Shown: positions 6,042-53,133, numbered from the stretch's first letter. The stretch: 64,000 bases of DNA from a virus (IMGVR_UViG_3300001525_000065:32001-96000), one strand, 5' to 3'. Program-made: numbers and translations. The notes: generated by a model from the sequence alone, not told the origin.

Positions 6042-6191
6042 TTACTGGATTTTGCTTCTCTGTAATGCTTACTTAGTGCTACAAGACGTTTAGAGGCTCT
6101 CTAGACCTCGTTAGTGCATATAGGGGCAAAACCCTCCCCTTGACATCAAAAGCGTCTCTAGGACGTTCTAGAGGCTCTAGAGACGTTATGT
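6042..6191. repeat. Dispersed ~130-150 bp quasi-palindromic repeat, copy 1
   Basis: Core ggggcaaaaccctcccc with TAG/CTA-rich arms; five other copies in the window. Confidence 0.9.
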
Positions 6192-6200
6192 GATTTTACG

Positions 6201-6228
6201 AGTAATTTATGATGCATAAACGAGTCTA
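6201..6228 (+). promoter_or_regulatory. Promoter-like motif AGTAAT-N12-AACGAGTCTA
   Basis: Continues as GTTCAGTAAGA, shared with the 10767 and 63663 copies; upstream of ORF 6253. Confidence 0.7.
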
Positions 6229-6252
6229 GTTCAGTAAGATGAATGGAGGATA

Positions 6253-6723
6253 ATGAGCATGAATATCAATCTCGAAGATTATCTGAGTGAAGATCAGATC
6301 AGGAGTATAATCGAAGAAGAGGTCCGAGCTGATATCAGAAATAAGATTATAGGTATGTCTGATGAACATCTTTCAACTGTTATGGTGAATGCCACGTATG
6401 AAGCAGTTGACAGGATGGTAGCAGAGAGATTCCATAATGACCTTACTGAGAAATTAGCAATTCGAGTAGCTGCACTAATAGACACTATGTCATTCTACAC
6501 TATATTCAGACAGAAAGATGCATATAGACCTGCATCGTTGTGCCAGCAGTACCTTGATGAAGCAGTAGAAGCTAATAAAGATCTTATTGCTCAGAAGGTA
6601 GTTGAGAAGATCAATGATTTTCATTATGATGAAATCAAGGAGTCCATTGAAGATACTGTGTATGAAGTAATCCATGATAAACTTTTTGGTAAGAAGGAGG
6701 ATACTACTCATGAACCTTTCTGA
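6253..6723 (+). CDS. Hypothetical protein
   Basis: 156-aa ORF with GGAGG SD after the promoter motif. Confidence 0.75.
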   Translation: MSMNINLEDYLSEDQIRSIIEEEVRADIRNKIIGMSDEHLSTVMVNATYEAVDRMVAERFHNDLTEKLAIRVAALIDTMSFYTIFRQKDAYRPASLCQQYLDEAVEANKDLIAQKVVEKINDFHYDEIKESIEDTVYEVIHDKLFGKKEDTTHEPF

Positions 6724-7306
6724 TAGATATCTGGCACTTAAGAGTGCATTGATTGATTCTGGTGATACCAGGTCAGAGCAGTTTAGTACATTACTGAACT
6801 ACATAGAGAATGAAACTCAGTATCTTGATGCCCCTGCTAGCACCAAGTATCACTGTAGTTATAAGCATGGTCTATTGGAACACTCAGTTAATGTCACTGA
6901 AGTACTTATTAAACTCAATAAAGTTCTAGGTGCTAATTTGCCTATAAGTAGCTGTATTTTTGTAGGACTTTGTCATGATTGTGGTAAGAGCGAACAGTAT
7001 ATAATGAAAGATCCTACTCCTAAACAGATCCAGTATGGATATCCTGGATCCATTGTGTATGCAGATGAGGAATCATGGATGGAGCATTCTACTAGGTCAC
7101 TCAAAATAGTCAGCAAATTCGTAGATTGCACAGATGATGAATGGGCAGCTATTGCATATCATAATGAGCCTCATAATGGTACTCTATCAGAGTGGAGAGA
7201 AACCAAGCTGGGTCTGCTCCTTCAGTATGCTGATTACTATGCAACTAGGTTCATGGAAGTGACTGGAGAAGAGAAATCCAAATCAGCTAGTCAGAATGAG
7301 GAGTGA
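6710..7306 (+). CDS. HD-domain phosphohydrolase
   Basis: APASTKYH...GLLEHS, CHDCGK, H...AIAYH, ADY; AGGAGG SD before ATG 6710. Confidence 0.85.
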   Translation: MNLSDRYLALKSALIDSGDTRSEQFSTLLNYIENETQYLDAPASTKYHCSYKHGLLEHSVNVTEVLIKLNKVLGANLPISSCIFVGLCHDCGKSEQYIMKDPTPKQIQYGYPGSIVYADEESWMEHSTRSLKIVSKFVDCTDDEWAAIAYHNEPHNGTLSEWRETKLGLLLQYADYYATRFMEVTGEEKSKSASQNEE

Positions 7307-7312
7307 GGTCAT

Positions 7313-8407
7313 ATGATCCTAGGCATTTATTCAGATCCACATGTATCATTCACAAGTAGCATACTACCTACATACAGTAGTGATAAATATTCTGCTAGAC
7401 TGCAGATGTGCATAGATTCATTTAGGTGGATGTATGAAGATATATTCTATAAGAATGATGTAGAATTAATATGTTGCTGTGGAGATCTCACTGACAAGTA
7501 CACACTAAGAGCAGATGAGATTACAGCATTGTCAGAATGCCTGGGATCTAATTACGAGAAGATTCCTGAGATACATATCACAGGTAATCATGATATGCTG
7601 AATACTCAGTTTTACTCGACATCACTGCTTAAGTTATTCGATCATGTGCAAATATTCTCTAGTCCTACTAAAATAGATGATACGTTGTCAGTGATGCCAT
7701 ATATGAAACCAGATATGGTAACTCATGAGATGCTTAAACATCTTAAGAATGAGATAGTACTTAGTCATCTCGACATATCTGGATCTCACCTCAGAGGAGA
7801 CTACATTATGGATACAGGAGTAGATCCTGAGCTACTTCGTATGTATTTCAATCTAGTACTGAATGGCCATCTTCACACACGAGAAGCAGTGAAATCTAAA
7901 GTTTGGAATGTAGGTAGCTTGACCAGTGGATCATTCAGTGATAATAACAGTTATGTACCTGGAGTTATGACATATGATACTGTAACACATGAGTTGAATA
8001 CCTATGACAATCCTCATGCAATCTTGTTCAGAAAAATTCATGTATCTGATACAGCTTCTCTTATCAAAGTAATTGATAAACTGAATCACAAATATAATTA
8101 TGTAGTGAGAGTTACTTGTCCATACGATTGTAAAGATAATTGTCATAAGATACTCAGTGAAGCAGATCAGATAATGACATTCAGAGTTATTACAGATCTA
8201 TCACAGAAGAGATCAGTAGAAATGACTAAAAATTCAGTAGCTTCTAGTATATTTACTGAGAGATCATTAGAGTCTGAGATGCTTAAGTATTTGAATGACA
8301 ATAGTAGTCTACTGAAATATCCTATGGGCATCTATCAAGATATCTTGAGTAATAAATCTAGTAAGGACGAGTCTAATATGGAGGTCATGGACAATGAACA
8401 TGAATGA
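7313..8407 (+). CDS. Mre11/SbcD-like metallophosphoesterase nuclease (T4 gp47-like)
   Basis: SDPH, GDL, GNHD and GHLH motifs; near the Rad50-like gene. Confidence 0.9.
   Translation: MILGIYSDPHVSFTSSILPTYSSDKYSARLQMCIDSFRWMYEDIFYKNDVELICCCGDLTDKYTLRADEITALSECLGSNYEKIPEIHITGNHDMLNTQFYSTSLLKLFDHVQIFSSPTKIDDTLSVMPYMKPDMVTHEMLKHLKNEIVLSHLDISGSHLRGDYIMDTGVDPELLRMYFNLVLNGHLHTREAVKSKVWNVGSLTSGSFSDNNSYVPGVMTYDTVTHELNTYDNPHAILFRKIHVSDTASLIKVIDKLNHKYNYVVRVTCPYDCKDNCHKILSEADQIMTFRVITDLSQKRSVEMTKNSVASSIFTERSLESEMLKYLNDNSSLLKYPMGIYQDILSNKSSKDESNMEVMDNEHE
8348..8375 (+). promoter_or_regulatory. Promoter-like motif variant AGTAAT-N12-GACGAGTCTA
   Basis: One mismatch to consensus; precedes GGAGG and ORF 8394. 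Confidence 0.55.
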
Positions 8408-8762
8408 ATCTAAAGAAGCTGCACCAGGAGTATTCTGGGTGATAGATGGAGAGTTGCATGCCTTTCCATTCTATGAAGATAATCTAATTATGAATGGAGT
8501 AGCTAAGTCTAGTACAACATACAATCATCAGAAACTATGGGATAAAGTGAAACCTAGAAAATGCAATAAACCATACAACTATTATCCTAGAGGTAGAGTT
8601 GATATAACTCCTAGCGGAATAGCTATTTTCTATATTAATCCCCACATCACAGATGACATGATACATGAAGTAATTAAGGAATTCGGAGTATCTAGTCTGC
8701 CAGTGAGGATTCACAAAGATTATAGTGATCATTACAAATGTTATCTTGACAAGGAGATATGA
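8394..8762 (+). CDS. Hypothetical protein, paralog of 46434-46850
   Basis: Both share GxFWxID, HxxxW, YYPRGRV and HYxC. Confidence 0.75.
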   Translation: MNMNESKEAAPGVFWVIDGELHAFPFYEDNLIMNGVAKSSTTYNHQKLWDKVKPRKCNKPYNYYPRGRVDITPSGIAIFYINPHITDDMIHEVIKEFGVSSLPVRIHKDYSDHYKCYLDKEI

Positions 8763-8769
8763 ATACATT

Positions 8770-9036
8770 ATGGTTACAAGGCATGAGCTTAAAACCCTAC
8801 CAGTCTATTTTGAGATGGCATGGTTTAGAACGAAGCAGTTTGAGCTACGCAAGAACGATAGAAACTTCCAGATAGGCGATGAAGTTATTCTCAGAGAGTG
8901 GTCACCTGAAGATGGATATTCTGGTAGATCTATTCTAGGTCATATATCATGCATTATAACTGAGCCTACATATTTAGCAGATGGTTATGTAGCACTTGGT
9001 CTCAGTAACATGGTGAATTGGGATGTTGCAGTATGA
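8770..9036 (+). CDS. ASCH/PUA-like (DUF3850-type) protein
   Basis: HELKTLPVYF...KQFELRKNDRNFQIGDEVILREW signature. Confidence 0.8.
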   Translation: MVTRHELKTLPVYFEMAWFRTKQFELRKNDRNFQIGDEVILREWSPEDGYSGRSILGHISCIITEPTYLADGYVALGLSNMVNWDVAV

Positions 9037-10754: not shown

Positions 10755-10766
10755 CAAGTACCTCCG

Positions 10767-10794
10767 AGTAATTCATTGAGATTAAACGAGTCTA
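10767..10794 (+). promoter_or_regulatory. Promoter-like motif AGTAAT-N12-AACGAGTCTA
   Basis: Exact consensus in the intergenic gap before ORF 10817. Confidence 0.7.
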
Positions 10795-10816
10795 GTTCAG
10801 TAAGAAAGAGAGAATC

Positions 10817-11411: not shown

Positions 11412-11414
11412 TAA

Positions 11415-12956: not shown

Positions 12957-12965
12957 GTATAAATT

Positions 12966-13003
12966 GTCCTCACTAGCTCAGATGAATTAGTGAGGACTTT
13001 TAT
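12966..13003. terminator. Probable bidirectional intrinsic terminator between convergent operons
   Basis: gtcctcactag...ttagtgaggac stem followed by tttt, between the stops at 12956(+) and 13007(-). Confidence 0.7.
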
Positions 13004-13006
13004 TAG

Positions 13007-15365: not shown

Positions 15366-15406
15366 AACTATCTATCATCTCCATTAATAAATTATTAGTC
15401 ATTTAT

Positions 15407-15558
15407 ACATAACGTCTCTAGAGCCTCTAGAACGTCCTAGAAGCCTCGTTCATTCCAAGGGGAGGGTTTTGCCCCTACATACCTAAACAACGTCTAAAGA
15501 GCCTCTAAACGTGCTAGAGCACTAAGTGAACGTTATGGAGAAGCAAAATCCAGTAAAC
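15407..15558. repeat. Dispersed quasi-palindromic repeat, copy 2 (inverted relative to copy 1)
   Basis: Core ggggagggttttgcccc; shares flank gaagcaaaatccagtaaac with copy 1. Confidence 0.9.
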
Positions 15559-15568: not shown

Positions 15569-16285
15569 TTACTCAACTTCATTTATTTCACTGAGACCAA
15601 TAATAGCACTATACTGACGATTAGCTATTTGTGGATCATTGAACTCATCATAAGTACTGTCATAAGGTATCTGATTAGTATAACCTGATGTACTAGTACT
15701 GTATGAACCATCACCAATGAATCCTGTCTTATGAGTGTATTTCTTATAAATGACTTTATCAGATATATCAACTTTATCAGTCTGATTAACTGGATGAGTC
15801 AGGACTACCTGGAGTCCTACTCCTGCAGGTCTTACTACTTCAAGTAGGTCATGTATTTTAGGTAGTGCTGCAGGATCATAAACACATACATAAATGTATC
15901 CAGTAGCTTCATCTTGGAATACATTGAATCCAGATAATGGATCAATAGCTGAATTGGATTGTTCAGCCACTCTTGATGCTAAAGCAGATGCAAGTTTGAA
16001 TCCAGTGTAGCTACCTCTATTTCTAATAAGATATGGATAATACTTTATGATAGCTCTATTGGAGTTTATGGATTCTCCTGCATCATAGTCATATCCTACA
16101 TAATCAGCTAATAGTGGTAGTAGGTTATCTGGACATTTATCTGGATCAATAAGAGATGGGAAGAGATCTGCATCAGTCTTAGCTGCATTGACTACTAGTT
16201 CTAGTAGCTTAAGTAAGATTTGATAGTCACGAGAATTAGCATAGGTCTTAGGAACCATGTATCGTGTATTAAGTAGCATTCTCAA
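15569..16285 (-). CDS. Baseplate wedge protein (P2 gpI-like)
   Basis: DPDKCPDNLLPLLADYVG, RGS and VRPAG motifs. Confidence 0.75.
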   Translation of the reverse strand: MRMLLNTRYMVPKTYANSRDYQILLKLLELVVNAAKTDADLFPSLIDPDKCPDNLLPLLADYVGYDYDAGESINSNRAIIKYYPYLIRNRGSYTGFKLASALASRVAEQSNSAIDPLSGFNVFQDEATGYIYVCVYDPAALPKIHDLLEVVRPAGVGLQVVLTHPVNQTDKVDISDKVIYKKYTHKTGFIGDGSYSTSTSGYTNQIPYDSTYDEFNDPQIANRQYSAIIGLSEINEVE

Positions 16286-26482: not shown

Positions 26483-26698
26483 TTATTGTGGTGATGAAGT
26501 AGATTCTCTTTCTATCTCTTTGATCTTCATTAGATTCTTAAGAATCAATTTACGTTCATGAGGTGATACATCATCGGTGTAGTCCATTGAAATACCACCT
26601 TGAGACAGATAACTAATCATCACTTGTTCTTCTATGATATCTTCATAGATTAATACTTTATATGGAGTACCAGAGTCATCAGTCGAAACTGGGTCGAA
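26483..26698 (-). CDS. Unannotated open frame (gp51-like), probably reached by a +1 frameshift from 26679-27440
   Basis: 72-codon open frame FDPVSTDDSGTPYKVLIYEDIIEEQVMISYLSQGGISMDYTDDVSPHERKLILKNL...; no SD-linked start; overlaps TTC TTT CGA. Confidence 0.55.
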   Translation of the reverse strand, partial: FDPVSTDDSGTPYKVLIYEDIIEEQVMISYLSQGGISMDYTDDVSPHERKLILKNLMKIKEIERESTSSPQ

Positions 26699-27440
26699 AG
26701 AACTCAGTAGTCACAGGTAGTGAATACTGAACCTCCCCTCCGCACTCAGGACAGATGTCTATCCTAGACAGATCCATACCAATGCTATTGACTACTTTCT
26801 CATACTTACTACGCAGGTATGCACCATCTTTAGCATGCATGGATTCGATATAACTCTGGATATCTTTCTTAAGTACTTCAGCTCCATTAACTGTCTTAAT
26901 GATATATTTCCATCTGATAATGAATTCAGGATCACCTACGTACTCAGGGAATTTACTGAGAATACGTTTAGACTCATTCTGAATGGCAGTGATATCTGAT
27001 GCACTCTGCAGTGCACATTCTACTACATCTCCACTTACAGGCAATGTAATGGTGAGCTGCTCATGTATGTCATCAGGTACTGGATTAACAGGTATATCGC
27101 TAAGCAGCATTTCTGCAGTGAAGACATGGCCACATTCTGGGCATCTGAGTTCTACTTTGTATTCAGGTCCATAAGTAGCAATACGTAGCATATACATAAG
27201 ATACTGAATATCAAACATCTTAAGTTCTGCTACGTCTAGATCTTTAGGTTCTATCATGCACTGCTTAATAAGCTGAGGAATAATAAGAATACCATTGGAT
27301 GATGACAGTCGTAGCTTCTCATCAAGAGTAGACATAGCACGAAGTGTTACTACCTCTGGTACTTTGAAATCATAAATGTTACTACCACCTGAACTAGGCA
27401 GTGTATAGGACTCGTGAATACTTACTTTCTTATCTGACAT
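26679..27440 (-). CDS. Tail/baseplate assembly chaperone (T4 gp26-like) with two CPEC motifs
   Basis: LPS, LRIATYG, CPECG twice, ends EFFRP; between tail tube and tape measure. Confidence 0.75.
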   Translation of the reverse strand: MSDKKVSIHESYTLPSSGGSNIYDFKVPEVVTLRAMSTLDEKLRLSSSNGILIIPQLIKQCMIEPKDLDVAELKMFDIQYLMYMLRIATYGPEYKVELRCPECGHVFTAEMLLSDIPVNPVPDDIHEQLTITLPVSGDVVECALQSASDITAIQNESKRILSKFPEYVGDPEFIIRWKYIIKTVNGAEVLKKDIQSYIESMHAKDGAYLRSKYEKVVNSIGMDLSRIDICPECGGEVQYSLPVTTEFFRPSFD

Positions 27441-27478
27441 AATTTATAACCTCCATTAATAAATTATTAGTCATTTAT

Positions 27479-27606
27479 ACATAATGCCTCTAGAGCCTCT
27501 AGAACGTCCTAGGAGCCTCGTTAGTGTCAAGGGGACAACCGTACCCCTATATGCACTAACGAGGTCTAGAGAGCTCCTAGACGTGCTAGAGCGCTAAGTG
27601 AACGTT
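27479..27606. repeat. Dispersed quasi-palindromic repeat, copy 3
   Basis: cctcgttagtg...cactaacgagg arms; shares ~30 bp flank ctccattaataaattattagtcatttatacataa with copy 2. Confidence 0.9.
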
Positions 27607-27640
27607 CATACGAAGCTAACTCTTACTAATTGTGAATAAA

Positions 27641-28252
27641 TCAGAGTGAGCTAAATGGTAGCTCTTCTCCATCAGCAGGATAGCAGTAGTCATAGATTAT
27701 AGTGCCAGTGATGCGACGCACACTATTATCATCAGAGCTGTAGTCACCCATACTAAGATTAGAGAGCCATGCACCTTTGATTACCCACTGACGAGCAACT
27801 GTACCATCAGGTGAGTACTGGTTTACCCATGCATTCTTCTTGTATCTACTAGCTAGTCCTACTGCCTGAGTGCGAATGTCATAAGACTGCTTCTGCCATG
27901 CCATAAGTATCTTTTCTGTATCGATACCAATGTAGTCATTGAGAGTAATGGAGCAATCACTGAATTCTGGTACTCCAGCGTACTTCACTGCATTGTTACC
28001 TCTACGAATCTGAATGTTAGAGATGTTCACACTCGGAGGAGTGAAGCTAGATGCTGCAAGAGTGATGTATCCAGATGAAGCAGCTGCATCAAGTGCAGTA
28101 CCATTCCATGCTGTCTGAAGAGGAGTGTTGTTAGGTCCACCTAGGTCAACATAAACCTCGTAGTTATTAGTTCTCTGAGGCTCATATTCATTCTTACCTA
28201 CCATGTGATAGGTACCTAGATACCCATTAAAAGTTTTGATATCGTTAGCCAT
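27641..28252 (-). CDS. Tail tube protein (gp19-like)
   Basis: YEPQRTNNY, YAG, YKK...QYSPDG...W...GAW...YD. Confidence 0.88.
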   Translation of the reverse strand: MANDIKTFNGYLGTYHMVGKNEYEPQRTNNYEVYVDLGGPNNTPLQTAWNGTALDAAASSGYITLAASSFTPPSVNISNIQIRRGNNAVKYAGVPEFSDCSITLNDYIGIDTEKILMAWQKQSYDIRTQAVGLASRYKKNAWVNQYSPDGTVARQWVIKGAWLSNLSMGDYSSDDNSVRRITGTIIYDYCYPADGEELPFSSL

Positions 28253-36506: not shown

Positions 36507-36542
36507 TCATCTCCTTTCATTCATAATTATAATCATATAGAT

Positions 36543-36606
36543 TAGTACTGACAAGGATGACTGAGCTAGGAGGTATCACTCAGTCATCCATACGTATGTC
36601 AGTAGC
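36543..36606 (-). promoter_or_regulatory. Long hairpin whose loop carries anti-SD ACCUCCU
   Basis: Stem TACTGACA-GGATGACTGAG / CTCAGTCATCC-TGTCAGTA; upper stem resembles 46173-46203. Confidence 0.5.
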
Positions 36607-36645
36607 TACTATCTAAATGAATAGATAGTTAAGGTTGATAAGTTA

Positions 36646-37279: not shown

Positions 37280-37398
37280 TAACGTCTACAAGGGGTCTAT
37301 AGAGCTCTAGGAGCCTCGTTAGTGCGAAGCGGGCAAGTGTGCCCCTACATGCACTAACGAGGTCTAGAGGGTCTATAAACGTGCTAGAGCACTAAGTG
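37280..37398. repeat. Dispersed quasi-palindromic repeat, copy 4
   Basis: cctcgttagtgc...gcactaacgagg arms and gtgctagagcactaagtg end. Confidence 0.88.
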
Positions 37399-37438
37399 TG
37401 TGCTCAAGAGAAGGTTAATTTGCTAAAATGCTAGATAA

Positions 37439-40400
37439 TTATGCCAGTATCGCGCCTCTGCAATACATATTGCTATTGATCATGCGCTTACCATAGCTCA
37501 TCATCCATGCACGACGTCCTACAAGGTCATCAGTGCGAAGGAGATCAGAAGGAGTAATGGGAAGGAAAGGACAATATACATCGTTTGTGTTACTGCTACT
37601 TCGTTTCCAAGTAGCATCACTAAGTTTCCTTAGTGACCAGACTATATCATTACCTCATGTATTATGATGAGGTATCTCACACTTTGAACTCACTTGAGTC
37701 CTACAGAGTTGCCACTCTTAGTCGTTGAACTTTCTACTTATACATAATGTATAAGATAGCTTAGCTGCTGATTATCCATTGTTGCAAGAGGTTAGATTAC
37801 TCATACTCTTATACTGAAGATTCTTTCTGCTTTCGCTGCATTCGCACTTGCCATCACTGGCTATGTTGTAGCTCTTCAGCCTTTAGGAGTTTCCAGCAAT
37901 TCATGAGATTTTCAATGACCAGTCACCTGGCCATGGGACTGTTTAGTAACCAATTGCTTATGCAGCTTTATTAGTACTAGTTAATCCTGCATCAAAGAGA
38001 CCTGTACCTCTGTATCCAAGCACGTACTCATTAGCAGGGAAGTCAGGAGATACATATACAGTGAACTGCCCATAAGTGCCAAGGAGGTAAGGACCTACAC
38101 CTGCATTACCGCTAGGAACAAAGTTACGAGAAGCAGAGATAACTGCTGCTACGCCAAGTCCACATACGAGAACATTCTATTCATTCAATAAGAATCGTTA
38201 CTTCTTATTCGTGTATCATACATGCACTGCTAATCATTTCTGACTAGAATAGACTATATCTTCATCATGGCATCTATTACCAATGACATGATGCTCATCA
38301 TTTTGATCTTACTTAAGATCTACTCTACTTGCTTCTTCACTAGTGGATTTCTCACTAGTTATGCTTTCGATAGTCGTTGAACTTCTACTCATGACTAATC
38401 ATGATGTAGTAGCTGCTGATTGTCCATGTATCTCAATAATTCTCAAGCATTCACACTTGTCATCACTGACTATGTTGTAGCTTATTGAGCTTTAGGAGTT
38501 TCCAGCAATTAGATGAGTTTAGACAGACCGATGTTACGCAGCCTGTACCTTGCGAGTATTCTGATAGATGATGTTGCTACCTTCAAGAAGTCTAGCATAG
38601 AAGGAGTCATAGTGGTCAAGGAGTGAAATGGCAGTGGGCTGAGCCTTAGACCATGCAGTGTTAGTAGCGCCTGCCTGAGCAAGAAGGTCTCCGCATACCT
38701 CCATATCCACTTCATGTGCTAGCTCACCAGCAACCTCAGCTGCCATTAGAGCATCGATCTGATTTCCATCATTTATGTTAGCTAGTCATTTCTGACTAGA
38801 TCAGACTATATCTTCATCTCATTGTCAGTGAGATGTCATTCATTTCGATTTAAGGGGATCTCACCCACTCATCATGTATTGTGATGAGCCCTACTCCTAT
38901 AGAATAGTTTATGTCAGTCTATTCCTTATAATTGGGATAGTCGTTGAACTTTATCCTATTCGGATTTTAGCTGCTGATTGTCCATTATGGAGATGTTTAG
39001 GATTTAACCATGCATCATATACTCATTTCTTTTTACTTTCGTAGCATTCACACTTGTGCTTATTTCATCACTATGTTGTAGCATGAGTATCTTTGGGAGT
39101 TTCCAGCAATTAGAATGATTTATTATTGTACTCATCACTGAGTACCGGAGCTTGGCTTTCAGATGATCGCTAACTCCTTCTCGAACTGAAGCGCAGCACT
39201 GAGGGAATAAAGAGATTTAATGGTACGATCCTTAGCTACGATCGGAAGAGATTCAATAGAGAGCTGAACCTCAGGAACTGCAGCAGGAGCATACTTATTG
39301 TTATAAGTGTATGTAGCAGTCCATGTACCTGCACCAGGAGCAGCAGTGAAGGTAAGTGCGCCAGTTGCATAGTCAATAGAACCAGCATCAGTGCCGCCCT
39401 TCTTGAGGTTGCCATTACCATCATCAGTGTAGACATTAGTGCCTTCAGTGATGTTGACAGATCCAGGAGCTACAGGAATCCATGCAAGAGATACAGTCGT
39501 ATCAGTTGCACCAAGTGCAAGAACTTCACCATCAACAAGTTCTGCAGTGTAGTTCTCATCAGACTGACCACCATAGATGGACGTCATGAAGGTGTCACCT
39601 GCTTTAACCTGACCCTTGTTGGATCCATAGTTATACTTAATATAATTTACCATACCTACGCGAGCAGACCAATTACCTTACAAATACATCGTATCCACGT
39701 ATTCTCTACATATTACTATGTAGTTGAGACTATATCATCATCTGAAGTACTGTTACTATACATCAGATGCTTCGCACTTCGATTTAAAGGATTTATCATG
39801 AGTTATTATCGCTCATGTACCTACCACTTGGCTCTACTCTACTCAGTTATTCACTAGTGTATTTCTCACTAGTTATCCTTTCGATAGTCGTTGCTCCTCT
39901 AGTACTACTCAGGGCACTAGAGGATCAGGATTGTCCATGTACTGCGTAACTTTACATGGAGGTTCCCTGAGTTCACGAAGTTTATCATAATAGATCACTC
40001 TATTATGCCACCTCATTGATGGGCTGCACTGAAACTAGATCGTACATAATGGTGTTAGGTACCATTGCATTAACGATATCCACATTTATCTTACGAATGT
40101 ATCGTATCCATACATTCTCTATACATTACTGTATAGATGAGACTATATCACATTCTCATTGACTCTTCACCAATGAGAACCTCACCATTTCGATTTAAAG
40201 GATTTACCATAAGCTAATCTCACTCATGTACCTACCACTTGGCTCTACTCTACTAGCTTATCATCACTGTCATATCTCAGATTAATTAGTGATTATGCTT
40301 TCGATAGTCGTTGAACTACCATCCTGCATCTAGATGATAGCTGCTGATTGTCCTAGAACTAGTTAATGATCATCCTGGGAGTTCCCAGCAATTAAGTGAG

Positions 40401-40644
40401 TTTGCATAACTAATCACTTAGTTATGGCGCAGGAGATTTACGCCCATCTCTTATATGATCCAGCAGAACCACCAATAGAAGTTACCTGAGTAGCCTCGAG
40501 GAGGTTCTTAGTATTCTCAAGAGTTGCAGCAAGTGCATTCTTACGATCGATGGAGAGAGCCTTACCAGTGGCTTTCTCAGTCATGGTTATACGCTTACCC
40601 CACTTCTCCATAAGAGCTGAATTAGTTTTAGAAATTGCATTCAT
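37439..40644 (-). CDS. Major capsid protein (gp23-like), 443 aa after splicing; exons 40644-40440, 40082-40019, 39669-39173, 38769-38540, 38176-37984, 37581-37439
   Basis: Exons total 1332 nt (444 codons) with no internal stop; junctions restore gp23 motifs WA-L-DIV, VSVQP-M-SARVG, EKE-Y-GNQID, QA-NVLV and DAG-Y-VYCPF. Confidence 0.93.
37582..37983 (-). ncRNA. Group I intron 5 in capsid gene (402 nt, no ORF; enlarged 44-nt P1 loop)
   Basis: P1 GGAU/GUCC with U.G; P AAUUGCUGGAAA, Q AAUCAGCAGC, R GUUCAACGACUA, S GAUAUAGUCU; terminal G. Confidence 0.92.
38177..38539 (-). ncRNA. Group I intron 4 in capsid gene (363 nt, no ORF)
   Basis: P1 ACAGGCU/GGUCUGU; P, Q, R and S elements; P10 AACAU/AUGUU; terminal G. 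Confidence 0.92.
38770..39172 (-). ncRNA. Group I intron 3 in capsid gene (403 nt, no ORF)
   Basis: P1 GGAGU/GCUCC; P, Q, R and S elements; terminal G. Confidence 0.92.
39670..40018 (-). ncRNA. Group I intron 2 in capsid gene (349 nt, no ORF)
   Basis: P1 CCAU/GUGG; covaried P4 UCAGG/CCUGA; R CAACGACUA, S GAUAUAGUCU; terminal G. Confidence 0.9.
40083..40439 (-). ncRNA. Group I intron 1 in capsid gene (357 nt, no ORF)
   Basis: P1 GGCGU/GCGCC; P AAUUGCUGGGAA, Q, R and S elements; terminal G. Confidence 0.92.
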
Positions 40645-45951: not shown

Positions 45952-45958
45952 TCATGAT

Positions 45959-46276: not shown

Positions 46277-46309
46277 TTATATAATAGAATTTTACTAATG
46301 CAGAATGCC

Positions 46310-46423
46310 CACTTAGTGCTATGAGACGTTTAGAGCCTCTCTAGACGTTGTTTAGACATACAGGGGCAAAACCCTCCCCTTGGAATCAAAGACGCTTATA
46401 AGACGTTCTAGACGTGCTAGAGC
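46310..46423. repeat. Dispersed quasi-palindromic repeat, copy 5
   Basis: Core ggggcaaaaccctcccc with periodic arms. Confidence 0.9.
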
Positions 46424-46433
46424 ATGAATGAGT

Positions 46434-46850
46434 TTATCTACAATTATGGCAAGTATAATGATCTATACCTGCACGTTCTTTAAGAGATGCCATCCACATA
46501 ATGGGTAAACATGAAGATATATCCAAATTATAATAGCTAGTGATGAGATCTTTATAATGATCAGTGTCTATGCACTTATCCATAAATATCATAACTGAAT
46601 AAGATGTGAATTTATTATCAGATGTATAGTTAGGATCTACTATCACTCTACCTCTAGGATAATAGTCAAATGGCACTTCATGACCATCCACTAGGTATTT
46701 AGATCTGTAATGATGCCATGTATTCTCATGAGTCTTATTAGCTAATGAGTATTCATAGTTATAATGAGGCACTTCTACTGCAGAACCTACCACTTCATTA
46801 TCAATAATCCAGAAGTATCCTTCAGATGGATAAGATTCTAAAATCTTCAT
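46434..46850 (-). CDS. Hypothetical protein, paralog of 8394-8762
   Basis: GYFWIID, HENTW, YYPRGRV, HYTC. Confidence 0.75.
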   Translation of the reverse strand: MKILESYPSEGYFWIIDNEVVGSAVEVPHYNYEYSLANKTHENTWHHYRSKYLVDGHEVPFDYYPRGRVIVDPNYTSDNKFTSYSVMIFMDKCIDTDHYKDLITSYYNLDISSCLPIMWMASLKERAGIDHYTCHNCR

Positions 46851-46862
46851 AATACATCTCCA

Positions 46863-47360
46863 TTACTCTTTCTCTCTAGGAGATAGATCTACTGATCCAT
46901 TCTCATAAGTAGCTATCCTCTTAGGTATCCATTCATATTTACTCTTCTTCATATATGATGCACGATTAAGTGCATTTGATCTGGTAGGGAAGATAAGTAT
47001 GGACTCATTACTCTTATCAGTAGTATAGCCATCAGATGTGAGATATCTATTGCCTGATGCCAATACATAACCATAACCATAAGAATCCATATTCTTAGAT
47101 AGCATACTCACTGTAGATGATTTCTTAGTCTTGAACTTGAGAGTAGGAATTTCTATTTCACCAGGATCAGTAGTATTCTGTAGGATACTCTTCACTTCTG
47201 CATCAATGTCTAAGATCTTATCTTTAGGCAAGTCTAATTCTAGGAGTTTCTTAGCTACTTCCTCAGGATAATTATACATGATTGATACATGTTCAATGCC
47301 ATCCTTAGCAATTATAGCAGAGTATCTACGCTCAATTAACACTATCATTGTATCATTCAC
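46863..47360 (-). CDS. Hypothetical protein
   Basis: Coupled ORF. Confidence 0.65.
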   Translation of the reverse strand: MNDTMIVLIERRYSAIIAKDGIEHVSIMYNYPEEVAKKLLELDLPKDKILDIDAEVKSILQNTTDPGEIEIPTLKFKTKKSSTVSMLSKNMDSYGYGYVLASGNRYLTSDGYTTDKSNESILIFPTRSNALNRASYMKKSKYEWIPKRIATYENGSVDLSPREKE

Positions 47361-47887
47361 CTCATTATATCTATCTTACTACCTAGTGATAATCTAGCAT
47401 ACTTGAATCCATGACTATGCATCTGATAATTCTTATTAGTCTCATAAAGATGACCAGATGAATAGTACCTACGAATTCTATCTACTACATAATCAGTACC
47501 ATCATCTAGTGTATACATCTTAGATTGATCACCTATCAGTACTTCTACTATGTGAGTAGTCCTAGCAAGATAATCTAGCCATACTAATAATGTGTTAGAT
47601 TGTTCATGAGTAATGACATGATCAGGACTACACATGACATAGTACTTAGGTACATCACATCTTATGCATCCTAGATCTCTCAGGGTTGGACTGCCTGCAG
47701 TTCTGATGTATTCATATGATGATAAATTATTATCAATGAGCCATTTCTCTACATCCGAATGATGACTGCATCTGGATAGATTCAATAAGTATCCATTAGG
47801 TAGAATGTATGCAGGTCCATTGTATGGATGATCAATAGTACCATAATGATCTACTATGAGATCTAATAATGCATCTGAATCCATCAT
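47357..47887 (-). CDS. Hypothetical protein
   Basis: Coupled ORF; YILPNG...H...GCIR. Confidence 0.7.
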   Translation of the reverse strand: MMDSDALLDLIVDHYGTIDHPYNGPAYILPNGYLLNLSRCSHHSDVEKWLIDNNLSSYEYIRTAGSPTLRDLGCIRCDVPKYYVMCSPDHVITHEQSNTLLVWLDYLARTTHIVEVLIGDQSKMYTLDDGTDYVVDRIRRYYSSGHLYETNKNYQMHSHGFKYARLSLGSKIDIMR

Positions 47888-49506: not shown

Positions 49507-50183
49507 TTACTGGCATCAGATGCAGGTAGTTGTTCCAGAGCATATACCACTTTCTTATCTCTACGATAAACTAGCGCACCTACTTCCACATCTGTAAGGC
49601 TGGTCATGCTTGATTCATCATCAGCTACAAAGATCTGAGGAGTAGCTCTAGCACTCTTATTAAGATCAGGATCTCTTACAAATGATCGAGTAACTGCATC
49701 ATAATAATAGTACACTGTATCCTGATTATAATTCTTATCATGCACTACCTTGATTACTTTACCATTAGCTAGGAAATCAGAAGGTAGTCTAAGCATCGAA
49801 TCGAAAGTAGGTACTACTATGAATTTATCAGCATCTGGATTAAGATAAGATGATGCTTGGTAAGTAAGTGTTAATTCATAACTGCTAGTCAATACATCAA
49901 TATCATCTGCAATAAGCGTTATGATGAACTTACATGAGATAACCTTATTAGGTTCAACTAGATCAGATGGAATTGATACATCTCCATTAGCATCTAGTTC
50001 TATTCTCTCAGATGTAAGTCCAGTATCATTTATCATGTATTGCATCTTGTACTTGTCAGTAGTGTAATTATCTGGATAATTAGTACGAATAACATATGTA
50101 TCAACTATTGTTGGATCAACCTGAATGACTGACCATGCATCACCACTAGCAAATCCATTCGAGTTAATATCTATATTAATCAT
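49464..50183 (-). CDS. Hypothetical, possibly structural protein
   Basis: Two short related C-terminal modules. Confidence 0.6.
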   Translation of the reverse strand: MINIDINSNGFASGDAWSVIQVDPTIVDTYVIRTNYPDNYTTDKYKMQYMINDTGLTSERIELDANGDVSIPSDLVEPNKVISCKFIITLIADDIDVLTSSYELTLTYQASSYLNPDADKFIVVPTFDSMLRLPSDFLANGKVIKVVHDKNYNQDTVYYYYDAVTRSFVRDPDLNKSARATPQIFVADDESSMTSLTDVEVGALVYRRDKKVVYALEQLPASDASNWQNTAPIWKSIKE

Positions 50184-50581
50184 ACATACTCCTTACCTAG
50201 TGCTAGAGGTCTACATAGCCTACGAATCTCATCCTCAATGATGAATGTGTTCTGACTGAGCTTATCAGTATCCATGGTCCTAGCACTAGTTACTGACTGA
50301 CCAGTCATGAGATTGATCTTATCCTTATTGATCTCGACAATAACCTGATCATCCTTAGGTTCACAAGGTTTAGCTACTGCAGAATTGCCTCTGATTACTC
50401 GATTGATAGCTGCAGCAGTATCAATGGTAATTTGATAAGGGCAGTCAACTCCAGTAATAGTATTGTAATTGATAAGTTCATTGAGTATCTCAGCTAGGTC
50501 ACCTGACTTGAGTACTTTCATCACATTATCAAATCCAATGCCAGTAGTCATAATTGCTTCATTGACTCTCTTTACTCTCAT
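50180..50581 (-). CDS. Hypothetical protein
   Basis: Coupled ORF. Confidence 0.65.
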   Translation of the reverse strand: MRVKRVNEAIMTTGIGFDNVMKVLKSGDLAEILNELINYNTITGVDCPYQITIDTAAAINRVIRGNSAVAKPCEPKDDQVIVEINKDKINLMTGQSVTSARTMDTDKLSQNTFIIEDEIRRLCRPLALGKEYV

Positions 50582-51587
50582 TCATTTTATCCTCACTTTC
50601 ATTAGAATTATTCCTAGGTCTGTATGCTCTCATCTTCTTATGAGTGTAGTGCCTACGTACCTGGTACTTAGAAAACTCACAAAAGATATTCTCTAGTGAC
50701 ATTATATTTATACATCTGTCATATTCTAGTAGATCATAGAATAATTCATTAGGATTATAATGCAGATGATTCTGATTAAAGATACTAGCTAGATTATCTC
50801 TAATCCAGAATAAAAGCTCATCATCTGATAATCCATCTAAGTCAGTTATCAACATATGCAATCCATATGAGCATCCAGGTCCACTGACTACAAATTCATT
50901 CTCACTAAATGGAAATTCATCTATGTAGCATAGATCTACATAGAACTGATAAGCTAAGAATGATCCACATCCAAAGATGCTATGTTGTAATAAATTATAC
51001 ACATCTACTTGACTATTGCATGATAACAATTTATCAGCTAGTCCATTCTGTATAAGATCTCTAGTTATGTATAATGGAGCATACTGGGATTGACTAGAAT
51101 AGTCCAGATCATACTTCTTACAGTTATGTATTCTGAATCCAATAGTCTTGTATGCATTAGTGTAATATAATGCATTAGTAACTGAATCAAGAGCAGTTAT
51201 GCATCGATCAATCCATCCATCAGTAAATCTGATAGGAAGATCAAGCAGCTCACCAGTAGTATCTACATTATACATTCTATACAGCAATGTATTGTAAATT
51301 CTATCTGATAAACTAAATGAATCATTGTTACTTATGTGATTGATCAGCCATTTACTGCATCTGTCATGCTCACGTCTTACCTGAGTGAATCTTAGCCTAC
51401 TTAGTATTGGATCAGTAGTCCATGGACTAGGTAGTTGCAATACATCTTTCTTTATATGTATTGAGTATCTTTCGTGGATATAGTAGTGCAGTAGTTTAAG
51501 CATCTCAAGATCATACGATGGATGAGCATTATGGATCTTAGATTCATCCACATTGCAATAATGTATGTCACTAGGTTTAGTTATCAT
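50559..51587 (-). CDS. aGPT-Pplase1-like (amino acid:DNA transferase) thymidine hypermodification enzyme
   Basis: ER...PWTTDPIL...FTQVRREHDR, GSFLAYQFYVDL, GPG, ENIFCEFSKY signature. Confidence 0.82.
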   Translation of the reverse strand: MITKPSDIHYCNVDESKIHNAHPSYDLEMLKLLHYYIHERYSIHIKKDVLQLPSPWTTDPILSRLRFTQVRREHDRCSKWLINHISNNDSFSLSDRIYNTLLYRMYNVDTTGELLDLPIRFTDGWIDRCITALDSVTNALYYTNAYKTIGFRIHNCKKYDLDYSSQSQYAPLYITRDLIQNGLADKLLSCNSQVDVYNLLQHSIFGCGSFLAYQFYVDLCYIDEFPFSENEFVVSGPGCSYGLHMLITDLDGLSDDELLFWIRDNLASIFNQNHLHYNPNELFYDLLEYDRCINIMSLENIFCEFSKYQVRRHYTHKKMRAYRPRNNSNESEDKMNESKESQ

Positions 51588-51616
51588 AAGTAACCTCCAT
51601 TGCCTATGATAATCAA

Positions 51617-52471
51617 TTATACACTAGTTAGATCAGATGCATCCTGACTCCATATATCTGCTAATGCATCTCCATACTCTGATACCTGATTATTGATCCA
51701 TGACATCTCACTAATGACATCTGCATTATTCTGGATGTTATCATTAATAGCATCTGAGATATCTTCTCCGTTCTCTCTAGCATCTCGTATAATTGGATAG
51801 AATACATCTGGTAGAATATCAGCTATGCCCTGATAAACTCTATTATAGCTATACTGTGTAGAGATCTCGTTACTACGTGCAGCAGCATAGATAGCAAAAT
51901 AATCATCTTCAGGAGATGGATCGACTGGTATTACATCGTCAATGATAAGATCTATAAGACCCTTCTTGGTATCAATACCTTCATACTCCTTCATGATGTC
52001 AAGAATTTCAGAGTCATCACTATCTACTGCAGATGTGTCATCTTCTGTCTCTTCTGCTTCAGTCACTGCTAGCTTGGATTCATCAAGATTAGTAGGTACT
52101 ACAAATAGCCAATAAGGATATCTACCCTCATCTGCATCAGTAGTATCTACCATCTTGTACCCTAGCTTACGTAGCTGAGCTGCTTGAGTTCTACGATCAC
52201 CTTTAGTCTTATAACTAAGCTGATACACATTGTCAGTATCGATGAAGTCATAAGGATCATAGTACACATACTTGTCTACCTGATTCTTAGTGAGATGCTT
52301 TACCTTAGGTGCATACTTAGATAGCTCAGGAATCTTATCAGTAAACTTACCATCAATGAATGCCTTAGCTACTTCTTCAGTAGGTAAATCTGCCATATCC
52401 TCCATCTTATCGATGAATACTGAATAGCTGCCATCATCCATCTTCTTGATTTCATAACCTCTATAAGTCAT
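51617..52471 (-). CDS. Acidic hypothetical protein
   Basis: 284-aa ORF with LDES and VTEA linkers. Confidence 0.7.
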   Translation of the reverse strand: MTYRGYEIKKMDDGSYSVFIDKMEDMADLPTEEVAKAFIDGKFTDKIPELSKYAPKVKHLTKNQVDKYVYYDPYDFIDTDNVYQLSYKTKGDRRTQAAQLRKLGYKMVDTTDADEGRYPYWLFVVPTNLDESKLAVTEAEETEDDTSAVDSDDSEILDIMKEYEGIDTKKGLIDLIIDDVIPVDPSPEDDYFAIYAAARSNEISTQYSYNRVYQGIADILPDVFYPIIRDARENGEDISDAINDNIQNNADVISEMSWINNQVSEYGDALADIWSQDASDLTSV

Positions 52472-52474
52472 GAG

Positions 52475-52657
52475 TTACTTACCTCTCTTCTTTTGTCTCT
52501 TCTCACTCATCTTATCAAAATATCCATTATGAAGATTTTCAGCTCGACGAGTGAGATTAATCAATTTTCTATCCTCATCATATGCTTTATATGGATCACA
52601 CTCAGAATGACAATGAGGATGCCTATTCTGACAATCCTTACATGGACTAACGAGCAT
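52475..52657 (-). CDS. Small Cys-rich protein
   Basis: PCKDC...CHSEC...Y motif common in Firmicutes phages. Confidence 0.65.
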   Translation of the reverse strand: MLVSPCKDCQNRHPHCHSECDPYKAYDEDRKLINLTRRAENLHNGYFDKMSEKRQKKRGK

Positions 52658-52970
52658 GACCGAATACTTTATGGATTATCTTACTAATCCATGACTCATG
52701 ATGAGTAGGTGCATCCGCAATGCTCTCATCAGGTTCTATCTCATCAATACATATCTGATCTGTTCCAGGTGTATCTGCTGAAATTGCAGTATCTATGTAT
52801 GATGTACCATCATCAGTAAATAGTGGATAAACTCGCTCACCTTCATAGAATACTGCATAACCTTCGTGCTCATCCACAGTAGCCATAGCATGATTAATGT
52901 CTGCATAACTAGCTATCTGACTAGCAGAATCATCTGCTGACTTACGCACTTTGTATGGTCTAGTAGGCAT
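52647..52970 (-). CDS. Small protein resembling a stand-alone clostridial lysin cell-wall-binding repeat
   Basis: YKVRKS...SQIASY...NHA...GYAVF...G.RVYP. Confidence 0.5.
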   Translation of the reverse strand: MPTRPYKVRKSADDSASQIASYADINHAMATVDEHEGYAVFYEGERVYPLFTDDGTSYIDTAISADTPGTDQICIDEIEPDESIADAPTHHESWISKIIHKVFGHAR

Positions 52971-53009
52971 GGTTCTTACTATCCTTTCAGTTAATTTTGT
53001 TAATGCATG

Positions 53010-53133
53010 ACGTTCACTTAGCGCTCTAGCACGTTTAGAGCCTCTCTAGACCTCGTTAGCGCATGTAGGGGCAAAACCCTCCCCTTGACACTAACGAGGC
53101 TCCTAGGACGTTCTAGAGGCTCTAGAGACGTTA
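53010..53133. repeat. Dispersed quasi-palindromic repeat, copy 6
   Basis: Core ggggcaaaaccctcccc; TAG at 53019/27/36/47/57/66 and CTA at 53091/103/113/122. Confidence 0.9.

Follow-up and report, generated by a model that had tools for sequence, protein, structure and literature searches.

What are the imperfect palindromes of about 130 bp that recur every 10 kb or so along this phage chromosome, and do they act as DNA or as RNA? The window is a stretch of 64,000 nucleotides from a 109,711-bp (109.7-kb), circularly assembled myophage contig with a 75-bp terminal overlap. A preliminary description had listed six such quasi-palindromes in it, all intergenic, with a GGGG...CCCC core and periodic TAG/CTA arms, and had assigned them a role at the DNA level, with gyrase-type wrapping as one candidate.

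A dispersed family of intergenic repeats

A dispersed family of intergenic repeats of ~130 nt exists in this genome. The six elements in the window were borne out, being 75-88% identical among themselves, and a profile search of the entire contig extended the family to 11 copies (E-values 1e-37 to 1e-48, Table 1), which occupy ~2% of the compact genome. As described for the window, the copies are intergenic and carry the GGGG...CCCC core, and both properties hold for 11 of 11. No homologue was found in Rfam, INPHARED, IMG/VR, the JGI metagenomes or four distant relatives; Rfam covariance models yielded nothing at gathering score and only chance-level matches at E up to 10. The repeat is assigned to no described family and is lineage-specific. 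A comparable array is absent from a distant relative, and the distant relative G002 carries at least 18 terminator-plus-promoter cassettes at gene junctions.

Table 1 Positions of repeat copies and of associated flanking motifs (window coordinates unless marked as genome).
Feature	Position	Strand	Properties
Copy c1	6041-6191	+	co-oriented with genes; inner stem broken; arm types L1/R3; RNA z -2.4; ssDNA z -1.4
Promoter-like motif CGAGTAAT-N13-ACGAGTCTAGTTCAG	6199-6234	+	directly downstream of c1, before SD and start at 6253
3' flank of c2, common to c3 (TGTATAAATGACTAATAATTTATTAATGGAG)	15366-15405	-	TATAAAT box and SD
Copy c2	15406-15557	-	co-oriented with genes; RNA z -2.3
3' flank of c3, homologous to c2 flank	27441-27477	-	TATAAAT box and SD
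Copy c3	27478-27624	-	co-oriented; near-continuous long hairpin; RNA z -5.2; ssDNA z -6.6
Copy c4	37280-37427	-	co-oriented; best hairpin (z -7.1); variant apex; variant word TATAGACCC in both arms
Copy c5	46284-46430	+	opposite to flanking genes; 3' end eroded; transcribed-strand z -0.8 (not better than shuffled)
Copy c6	52987-53136	+	opposite to flanking genes
Promoter-like motif GAAGTAAT-N13-ACGAGTCTAGTTTAG	53195-53230	-	upstream of c6 in transcription direction
Five copies beyond window	genome 6148, 16800, 21205, 31137, 98621	-, -, +, +, -	found by profile search

The regular spacing of roughly 10 kb noted for the window holds up when all copies are mapped. The gaps between the 11 copies measure 10.6, 4.4, 9.9, 6.9, 9.4, 12.1, 9.8, 9.0, 6.7, 13.6 and 17.2 kb (CV 0.33), which is more even than chance whether the null is uniform placement (P 2.7e-4), random gene junctions (P 3.3e-4) or the 46 intergenic gaps of at least 45 nt (P 1.8e-4), these P-values being post hoc because the finding had been picked for its spacing.

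The copies are recombinant mosaics, in which the variants of arm, apex and flank do not assort congruently, and several copies are degraded. Towards the flanks the resemblance between copies is lost gradually and pair by pair, leaving fuzzy element boundaries, and neither a terminal inverted repeat with target duplication nor a common duplication was recognised in the copies' flanks. An empty site bearing a target duplication was likewise not seen. In a metagenome relative with ~90% identity, position 46320 is joined to 47895, so that the fused outer ends of c5 remain and three genes are gone; this joint is known from one contig of a single metagenome run, at 80% likeness. The deletion falls between the element's own direct repeats.

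Arm anatomy, periodicity and folding

Each copy is an imperfect fold-back of ~130 nt in which a 27-nt module occurs twice, on either side of a central hairpin whose stem carries GGGG/CCCC. The modules consist of ~9.5-nt words centred on CTAG, and the two arms, which are imperfect and separated by a 9-nt spacer, are direct and inverted repeats of the same module, with an operator-like layout (ACGT-TCTAGAG-GC-TCTAGAG-ACGT) and CTAG and ACGT as small palindromic cores. In c4, one variant word (TATAGACCC) occurs in direct orientation in the left and in the right arm. The word units vary in their sequence and in their length (8-11 nt), and their count is constant across copies except where a CTAG has been lost; since unit count is equal in all copies, nothing points to slippage still under way. 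In this the arms differ from tandem-word arrays of the CTAG-box type, in which one short unit is repeated and its number varies between loci. Only complete units are present, and isolated sub-motifs do not occur in the rest of the genome.

The periodicity ascribed to the arms is significant, though not as helical phasing. TAG starts follow one another at intervals of 8, 9, 11, 10, 9, [38], 10 and 9 nt, the TAG/CTAG spectrum peaks at 9.5 nt (P ~0.002 for one copy), the A/T-versus-G/C spectrum peaks likewise at 9.5 nt, and both contain only background power at 10.5 nt. With such a period, successive cores rotate around B-DNA and do not all lie on one face, which speaks against gyrase- or nucleosome-type wrapping; taken with the lack of a comparable array in the distant relative, the proposal of gyrase-type wrapping is not supported. 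Conservation is somewhat higher in the TAG cores than in other columns, a modest effect (odds ratio 2.9, P 0.026).

A long-hairpin model pairs 83% of cells, compared with 33-49% when the partners are slid. As RNA, the element's sense strand folds better than shuffled sequence in nine of 11 copies (z -2.3 to -7.1). Poor arm pairing had been noted for c1, c2 and c5, and these indeed give z values of -2.4, -2.3 and -3.2 (c3, c4 and c6: -4.9 to -7.1); the same three reach only -1.1 to -1.4 as single-stranded DNA, for which three of the six window copies tested fold better than shuffled. On the strand that would be transcribed together with the neighbouring genes, clear structure is predicted for eight of 11 copies, while g17k (+0.3), g21k (-1.2) and c5 (-0.8) do not go beyond chance. 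G.U pairs exceed A.C pairs (59 versus 27 across copies, 4 versus 0 in the consensus), which favours one strand. In the central stem, GGGG/CCCC pairing is kept despite loop changes, and two variants have an extended stem. The two best hairpins, c4 and c3, come after the capsid and the tail-tube gene, respectively.

Several properties of the set count against an RNA hairpin. Covariation in the long hairpin does not rise above that of shuffles, no compensatory change maintains pairing, and columns that pair are as variable as those that do not. Only four of 11 copies retain an unbroken 11-bp inner stem, three copies are antisense, and three are not structured beyond chance on the transcribed strand. 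No U-tract follows the stem, and ordinary hairpin-plus-T-tract terminators are present elsewhere in the phage.

Position relative to genes and promoters

Eight of the 11 copies are co-oriented with transcription and three are antisense to their own genes. In the co-oriented copies (n=8) the upstream stop codon lies 3-17 nt from the element's 5' side and the next start codon 34-83 nt beyond; a gap of 3-17 nt on the 5' side is found in ten of 11 copies, with a Shine-Dalgarno sequence (SD) and start downstream. A 366-aa gene ends 5 nt before c1, and the next start follows 62 nt after it. Copy c2 comes after a P2-I-like tail protein gene (15569-16285) and before a 187-aa gene, c3 separates a tail-tube gene (27641-28252) from a T4-type baseplate gene (26679-27440), c4 lies directly 3' of the major capsid gene, which is itself intron-split, and c5 has a 138-aa gene and the terminase leader as neighbours. 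The copies delimit functional gene modules: a thymidine-modification module including a 5-hmdU DNA kinase between c6 and c5, terminase, portal, protease and capsid between c5 and c4, neck, sheath and tube between c4 and c3, and baseplate and tape measure between c3 and c2. The thymidines of the phage are probably hypermodified.

A phage promoter-like motif occurs 17 times, each time 13-30 nt ahead of a gene start, and in five copies (about half) it comes after the element, within 16-26 nt. A 107-aa gene starts at 52970 and such a motif lies at 53195-53230; c6 falls between the two and would thus be part of a 5' leader. A consistent TTGACA-N17-TATAAT arrangement was not present in the aligned flanks, where g99k alone scores 10/12, and the late region shows no enrichment of consensus promoters.

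Orientation had been described as independent of transcription. Copies c5 and c6 are indeed opposite to their neighbours within the minus-strand block, but the predominance of co-oriented copies and the strand bias in G.U pairs speak otherwise, and the argument is weak in any case, since both strands of a quasi-palindrome can fold.

The phage encodes a T4-type topoisomerase II, with one copy of the repeat immediately upstream of the large-subunit gene, an SbcC-like subunit, and selfish elements in the form of five group I introns and an HNH homing endonuclease. A ribbon-helix-helix or Arc-type gene was not detected in the phage, and no transposase or RAYT partner was seen among the ~55 of 130 ORFs scanned.

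Known systems and competing readings

One close resemblance is to the promoter-early stem-loop (PeSL) cassettes of T4-type phages (PMC2839356; Comeau et al. 2014, PMC4122927), which consist of a stop codon, a stem-loop with G/C tracts, a promoter and an SD (Arbiol et al. 2010, PMC2839356). Each is an intergenic cassette that recurs in T4-like myophages, and each follows the order stop codon, G/C-tract stem-loop, promoter, SD and start. Recombination between copies, implicated for PeSLs in indels among close relatives, may act likewise here, as the single contig joint from one metagenome run would suggest. The PeSL stem-loop is short and its repeat includes a sigma-70 promoter, whereas here a ~130-nt hairpin has periodic, word-built arms, the repeat contains no such promoter, and a phage-specific motif lies beside about half of the copies. 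Some 50 PeSLs cluster in hyperplastic regions, mostly upstream of ORFans; the 11 copies found here are evenly placed, occur also within the conserved head, tail and baseplate modules, and include three that are inverted.

REP/BIME, ERIC and Correia repeats serve as mRNA stabilisers or processing sites, and BIMEs bind gyrase and IHF. Like the phage repeat, they are imperfect palindromes of 100-150 bp, strictly intergenic, found in either orientation inside transcription units and heterogeneous between copies. The present family differs in being phage-borne and regularly spaced, in its CTAG-word arms of 9.5-nt period, and in that neither a RAYT/transposase partner, within the ORFs scanned, nor a terminal inverted repeat with target duplication was seen. 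The RNase III sites of phage T7 are likewise about ten related intercistronic hairpins along a phage genome; they separate module-sized mRNAs, as the present copies would. The T7 sites are shorter, all sense-oriented, possess a defined internal loop and have demonstrated cleavage, whereas several copies here fold poorly. The strong gyrase site of phage Mu is a single central site, and the gyrase motif of ~130 bp has a period of ~10.5 bp. Length, dyad-like organisation and periodic arms are shared with it; the 9.5-bp period and the presence of eleven copies are not, and the topoisomerase II that the phage encodes is of the T4 type, which does not wrap DNA. Cluster O mycobacteriophages carry more than 30 copies of a dispersed 17-bp dyad repeat, likewise genome-wide, often at gene junctions and oriented independently of transcription, but not known to be evenly spaced and with invariant arms and some copies inside genes, unlike the ~130-bp mosaic copies of this phage (PMC4351075). 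A Prevotella MAG contains strict 9-nt TCTAGAAnn arrays at at least seven loci, dispersed hairpins of tandem CTAG words whose arms are also rows of short CTAG-bearing units with periods (7-10 nt) other than the helical repeat; arrays of CTAG units fold back on themselves because the CTAG core is self-complementary. The element model matches these arrays with 24-30 bits while skipping the centre, a resemblance for which homology is not demonstrated, and the phage units are non-identical, fixed in number, arranged around a unique central hairpin and repeated as an entire 130-nt unit.

We tentatively favour, at somewhat less than an even chance, an intergenic repeat spread by recombination whose role would lie at the RNA level, as a punctuation hairpin in the manner of PeSL or REP/ERIC elements. 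This RNA role offers no reason for the even spacing, even against the 46 available intergenic gaps. The spacing would be explained if each copy were a double-stranded docking site of ~130 bp, with a row of CTAG/ACGT cores at ~9.5 bp to which a phage or host protein binds cooperatively. A site every ~10 kb would then organise the chromosome whatever the direction of transcription, as topological-domain/topoisomerase sites, loading or nicking sites, or module insulators. We regard this, the main rival, as possible but rather doubtful. The sequence and its TAG periodicity outlast lost pairing, the cores are the more conserved columns, the arms repeat an operator-like module both directly and inverted, with the variant word of c4 direct in both, only complete units occur, elements lie in both orientations, and a topoisomerase II is encoded with a copy next to its large-subunit gene. 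The period, however, weakens wrapping of the gyrase or nucleosome type, core conservation is modest, no Arc-type gene was detected in the phage, the distant relative has no comparable array, c5 has apparently been cut to its fused ends in one relative, the spacing statistics are post hoc, and a double-stranded site leaves the excess of G.U over A.C pairs unexplained. The absence of compensatory change, the two to three copies that fold no better than shuffled and the somewhat better conserved TAG cores fit the preliminary view of a role beyond a strict RNA hairpin; the DNA-level reading is nevertheless not the better supported of the two.

Mosaic and partly degraded copies, the internal deletion between direct repeats in the relative, a genome rich in selfish elements and the dispersed CTAG-word hairpins of Prevotella would all suit a functionless selfish or neutral repeat, a MITE- or REP-like fold-back born by slippage from a CTAG-bearing unit of ~9-10 nt, copied to tolerant intergenic sites and now decaying. 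This is unlikely, as random insertion is not expected to give even spacing, the boundaries are fuzzy with no terminal inverted repeat and target duplication recognised, no transposase-like partner was noticed in the scanned ORFs, the constant unit count gives no sign of continuing slippage, and ~2% of a compact genome is kept in these elements. More improbable still are hotspots at which hairpins extruded in single-stranded DNA would be cut by a phage Mre11/Rad50 (SbcCD-like) nuclease, the regular breaks priming recombination-dependent replication: the SbcC-like subunit and the regularly spaced long quasi-palindromes fit, but as single-stranded DNA three of the six copies in the window do not exceed shuffled sequence in folding, and the imperfect arms are split by a spacer.

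For the RNA punctuation hairpin, the analysis establishes how many copies there are, their anatomy, their intergenic position and mosaicism, and how they are predicted to fold; transcription through the element, any cleavage or attenuation, and spread by recombination are inferred. Copies would have been spread and kept similar by homologous recombination in a recombination-proficient T4-like phage, coming to lie at gene-module junctions just past a stop codon and usually just before a promoter. Those still able to fold would form a long hairpin in the transcript that punctuates expression by attenuating read-through, by providing an RNase III-type cleavage site or by blocking exonucleases; cleavage or an exonuclease block would uncouple the stability of adjacent modules. 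The element would then correspond to the stem-loop half of PeSL terminator-promoter cassettes and to bacterial REP/ERIC, and the repeats may double as recombination points for the gain and loss of gene cassettes. It is distinctly more doubtful that the eleven copies are double-stranded docking arrays for a putative phage or host protein that split the chromosome into ~10-kb domains, where the protein may act as a topological or replication-transcription insulator or at loading or nicking sites. If true, this would be a chromosome-organising system undescribed for tailed phages, acting on DNA with probably hypermodified thymidines.

Copy number, spacing and anatomy of the element

All six copies that the preliminary description had placed in the window were recovered (c1 to c6, mutual identity 75-88%). 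Used as a profile, they retrieve 11 copies from the phage genome, with E values of 1e-37 to 1e-48 and everything else at noise level; the five copies outside the window are labelled by their genome kilobase (g6k, g17k, g21k, g31k, g99k). The intergenic location described for the six holds for 11 of 11 copies genome-wide. The window corresponds to bases 32001-96000 of one contig of 109,711 bp; this is a circular assembly that has direct terminal repeats, as its ends overlap by 75 bp. On the 109.6-kb circle, consecutive copies are separated by 10.6, 4.4, 9.9, 6.9, 9.4, 12.1, 9.8, 9.0, 6.7, 13.6 and 17.2 kb. The spacing CV of the 11 copies on the circular genome is 0.33, and values as low occur in 2.7e-4 of uniform placements, in 3.3e-4 of draws from all 129 gene junctions and in 1.8e-4 of draws from the 46 intergenic gaps of at least 45 nt, P-values that are to be discounted because the finding was selected for its spacing. 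The regular spacing of about 10 kb thus stands when mapped over the entire genome, being more even than under each of the three null models, and module size alone fails to account for it.

The consensus starts with an outer left part (CACTTAGTGC), which is followed by a 27-nt module (TCTAGCACGTTTAGAGGCTCTCTAGAC), the left strand of an inner stem (CCTCGTTAGTG), an apex of the form GGGG-loop-CCCC, the inner stem partner (CACTAACGAGG), the 27-nt module repeated in direct orientation (TCTAGGACGTTCTAGAGGCTCTAGAG) and an outer right part (ACGTTATG). As the module is built of self-complementary cores (CTAG, ACGT), it is a direct and an inverted repeat at once, and this is why the element folds back as a whole, with arms that contain bulges. 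None of its sub-motifs occurs anywhere in the phage genome outside the 11 copies. The intervals between TAG starts are 8, 9, 11, 10, 9, [38], 10 and 9 nt in almost all copies. The spectrum of the TAG words peaks at 9.5 nt (single-copy P 0.002 against the same number of TAGs placed randomly); the A/T-versus-G/C pattern also peaks at 9.5 nt, and its power at 10.5 nt equals background. The periodicity that had been proposed is therefore real, but it is not the DNA helical repeat, and the element departs in precisely this feature from gyrase wrapping sites, with which it had been compared. TAG cores are somewhat more conserved than the remaining columns (odds ratio 2.9, P 0.026).

Folding and conservation of structure

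When the copies are arranged on a long-hairpin model, 82.6% of the cells are standard pairs, as opposed to 33-49% when the partners are slid. No measure of covariation in this model rises above shuffles, and variation is equal in paired and unpaired columns. Four copies have an intact 11-bp inner stem, and the other seven join mismatched left and right variants. Copies cluster differently in the outer-left, inner-left, apex, inner-right and outer-right segments, which identifies them as recombinant mosaics. RNA folding is heterogeneous among copies, and folding of single-stranded DNA exceeds shuffles only in c3, c4 and c6. G.U pairs outnumber A.C pairs (59 versus 27 across copies, 4 versus 0 in the consensus), so that, judged by the z-scores, 8 of the 11 copies fold better on the sense strand. 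This asymmetry is weak evidence, given that a single sense-strand fold served to build the model structure.

RNA folding z-scores (against shuffled sequence) of the 11 copies, and location of the inverted copies
Copy	Sense z	Antisense z	Location of inverted copy
c4	-7.1	-4.7	
c3	-5.2	-5.6	
g31k	-5.1	-4.1	
c6	-4.9	-3.4	Between promoter motif and next gene; would fall in a 5' leader
g6k	-3.5	-1.4	
c5	-3.2	-0.8	Ahead of the terminase leader
g99k	-3.0	-3.2	
c1	-2.4	-1.4	
c2	-2.3	-1.7	
g21k	-1.2	+0.3	
g17k	-0.7	+0.3	In the topoisomerase II gene leader

Gene content and surroundings of the copies

The genome is that of a tailed phage with a contractile tail. Its gp20-like portal protein is 36% identical to that of Streptococcus phage GXN1 and 32-34% identical to those of the Bacillus phages HSE3 and SP-15. 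Structural genes encode a prohead protease, sheath, tube, T4-type baseplate proteins, a tape measure and a gp5-like spike, and those for DNA metabolism a DNA polymerase, an SbcC-like nuclease subunit, an NAD ligase and a T4-type topoisomerase II. Ribosome-binding sites are strong and of the GGAGG type. As called with a simple ORF picker, genes lie on the minus strand at 0.5-16.4 kb of the genome, on the plus strand at 16.6-45.0 kb and on the minus strand again at 45.0-109.7 kb. Inside the major capsid gene, in the interval from the prohead protease gene to c4, five group I introns follow one another. GC skew is about zero around the gene for the 1699-aa protein, in contrast to the flanking late genes. 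The presence of a 5-hmdU DNA kinase gene suggests that the phage probably hypermodifies thymidine after replication; hypermodified thymidines, if present in the phage DNA, could alter the T-containing cores as seen by proteins.

Eight copies are co-oriented with their genes, a proportion that is non-significant by binomial reasoning. Here the order is always stop codon, 3-17 nt, element, 34-83 nt and next start. Within 16-26 nt after g6k, g21k, g31k, c1 and g99k, the motif CGAGTAAT-N13-ACGAGTCTAGTTCAG follows. The genome has 17 copies of this motif, most of them in the early and replication regions, each co-oriented and with a gene start 13-30 nt downstream. We read it as a putative phage-specific promoter; a motif of this kind suggests a sigma factor or RNA polymerase specificity that the phage itself encodes. 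A flank of another type, with a TATAAAT box and a Shine-Dalgarno sequence, is common to c2 and c3. Orientation blocks were considered as a signal of replication direction and rejected (4 runs, P 0.26).

Within the late block (50 kb, minus strand), recognisable modules are separated by copies: thymidine modification between c6 and c5, terminase, portal, protease and capsid between c5 and c4, neck, sheath and tube between c4 and c3, and baseplate, tape measure and spike between c3 and c2. The two strongest hairpins are located directly 3' of the capsid and tail-tube genes. c5 and c6, which bracket the thymidine-modification module, are direct repeats of each other. Unique ordinary hairpins with T-rich tracts, likely terminators, occupy other module junctions, so that the elements are only a subset of the punctuation marks. 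One of these T-tract hairpins is bidirectional and sits at the convergence of plus- and minus-strand gene blocks. Several candidate roles and partners were discarded. The copies have no consistent sigma-70 promoter of their own that could drive a small RNA, and a pseudoknot between 5' flank and loop conflicts with a flank that is, by eye, constant across loop variants. Regions upstream of genes show no enrichment of the T4-type late promoter TATAAATA, which was considered as a general partner, and the lack of an adjacent U-tract contradicts a classical intrinsic terminator.

Coordinates of features (window coordinates; those with prefix L009 refer to the whole genome)
Feature	Position (strand)	Remark
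HNH/homing endonuclease, 542 aa	2340-3968 (+)	3' of DNA polymerase frame ending at 2343
Internal repeat of the endonuclease gene	2511-2909	69 nt (23 aa), four copies
CGAGTAAT-N13-ACGAGTCTAGTTCAG	6199-6234 (+)	13 others lie elsewhere in the genome
CGAGTAAT-N13-ACGAGTCTAGTTCAG	10765-10800 (+)	
CGAGTAAT-N13-ACGAGTCTAGTTCAG	53195-53230 (-)	
CGAGTAAT-N13-ACGAGTCTAGTTCAG	63657-63692 (-)	
Hairpin with T-rich tract	12957-13006	
Hairpin with T-rich tract	36507-36645	
Hairpin with T-rich tract	58969-59068	
Hairpin with T-rich tract	61838-61955	
Five group I introns	37618-40449 (-)	Rfam RF00028, 66-91 bits
Three small genes	46434-47887	Absent from relative in run X1
Thymidine-modification module	46434-52970	
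Gene matching the 5-hmdU DNA kinase helical domain	50559-51587 (-)	PF18723, E 1e-57
1699-aa protein	53869-58968 (-)	No PHROG match
NAD-dependent DNA ligase	L009:4209-6086 (-)	Element copy immediately upstream
T4-type topoisomerase II large subunit	L009:16921-18894 (+)	Element copy immediately upstream

Relatives, candidate functions and significance

The element matches no Rfam family, and blastn with one copy yielded no match among INPHARED phages. A conserved-core pattern gave four chance matches in IMG/VR, which nhmmer did not confirm, and a second pattern gave none; two such scans of JGI metagenomes returned 0 and 0. A search of four distant IMG/VR relatives with the covariance model of the element (R1) was negative. 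In the GTDB representative genomes, the pattern scan hit a single Prevotella MAG, which contains a different CTAG-array family, and the element is absent. This MAG (Prevotella sp. JAZLCN01, L018-L028) carries at least seven loci with strict 9-nt TCTAGAAnn tandem arrays that form 60-100-nt hairpins, and one further locus (L019) is built of TTGTAA/TTACAA words. The arrays look like an unnamed dispersed repeat family; the principle of construction is alike, but homology to the element is not demonstrable (24-30 bits, with the model centre skipped). A distant phage relative (G002, IMG/VR UViG 3300028888_000073, 118 kb) contains at least 18 repeated cassettes in one orientation, each with a short terminator hairpin, a TTGACA...TATACT promoter, a Shine-Dalgarno sequence and a start. 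Their stems vary in sequence and keep pairing, as in true terminators. These cassettes resemble promoter-early stem-loop (PeSL) cassettes, in a phage with Gram-positive-type signals. A reduced energy scan of the same genome detected no family of large palindromes or hairpins.

Close relatives are known as proteins (P0001 and P0002, whose baseplate protein is 96% and 80% identical). A search of sequencing runs yielded no match in RNA data. At the nucleotide level, the metagenome run X1 is the only one with relatives (about 90% identical); it covers a small share of words, and uncovered parts are uninformative. One X1 contig joins position 46320, 11 nt into the c5 core, via 18 other letters to position 47895. 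Read with the flanks, this relative has CACTTAGTGCT-CTAGAACGTTAGGG here, which reads as the fused outer ends of an element, and it is devoid of the three small genes and most of c5. Such fused ends are what one would expect from a deletion between direct repeats within the element. The contig, a single one with 80% likeness, is only a hint that copies mark end-points of indels and can decay. Several contig joints in X1 also fall within 37.8-40.6 kb, over the intron row.

For the element, we lean tentatively towards a repeat that was spread by recombination and acts as RNA punctuation. Such a role accounts for the placement 3' of stops and 5' of promoters, the coincidence with module boundaries, strong hairpins 3' of those structural genes that are presumably expressed most highly, the G.U bias, and a conserved central stem with a variable loop, and it has a parallel in the PeSL cassettes (PMC2839356). 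What it leaves unexplained is that the spacing is even, that covariation is lacking, that some copies fold poorly and that three are antisense. Spacing and indifference to orientation would follow if the copies formed an array of docking sites on the DNA, as would the persistence of sequence and periodicity where pairing is lost and the direct-plus-inverted, operator-like build of the modules. We nevertheless regard this as a rather doubtful, if serious, possibility: the period is 9.5 bp, the cores are only modestly conserved, a search of the phage for ribbon-helix-helix/Arc-type genes provided no candidate binder, and there is no analogous array in a relative. A functionless, purely selfish repeat would explain mosaicism and decay and does not explain the spacing; we deem it unlikely. 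That the copies are hotspots for hairpin breakage appears very improbable.

The nearest analogues in mode of action are REP/ERIC elements and, among PeSL cassettes, their stem-loop half, although the internal sigma-70 promoter and the clustering in hyperplastic regions that define PeSL are missing. Cluster O mycobacteriophages are known to carry dispersed dyad repeats (PMC4351075). We class the element with intergenic palindromic repeats or regulatory cassettes, from which it is set apart by its unusual size, its word-built arms and its regular spacing.

Promoters and short terminators are commonly regarded as the sole punctuation of large phage genomes. Here, an elaborate 130-nt element appears again and again where modules meet, more regularly than chance would explain. 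With only eleven sites to mutate or pull down, it is experimentally tractable. If it is an array acting at the DNA level, it would be evidence for evenly spaced organising sites on phage chromosomes. If, on the other hand, it is an RNA punctuation hairpin, the PeSL idea that regulatory cassettes double as recombination joints would extend to a Firmicute-type phage and to core structural modules, and would offer a handle on how expression ratios are set at the level of modules.
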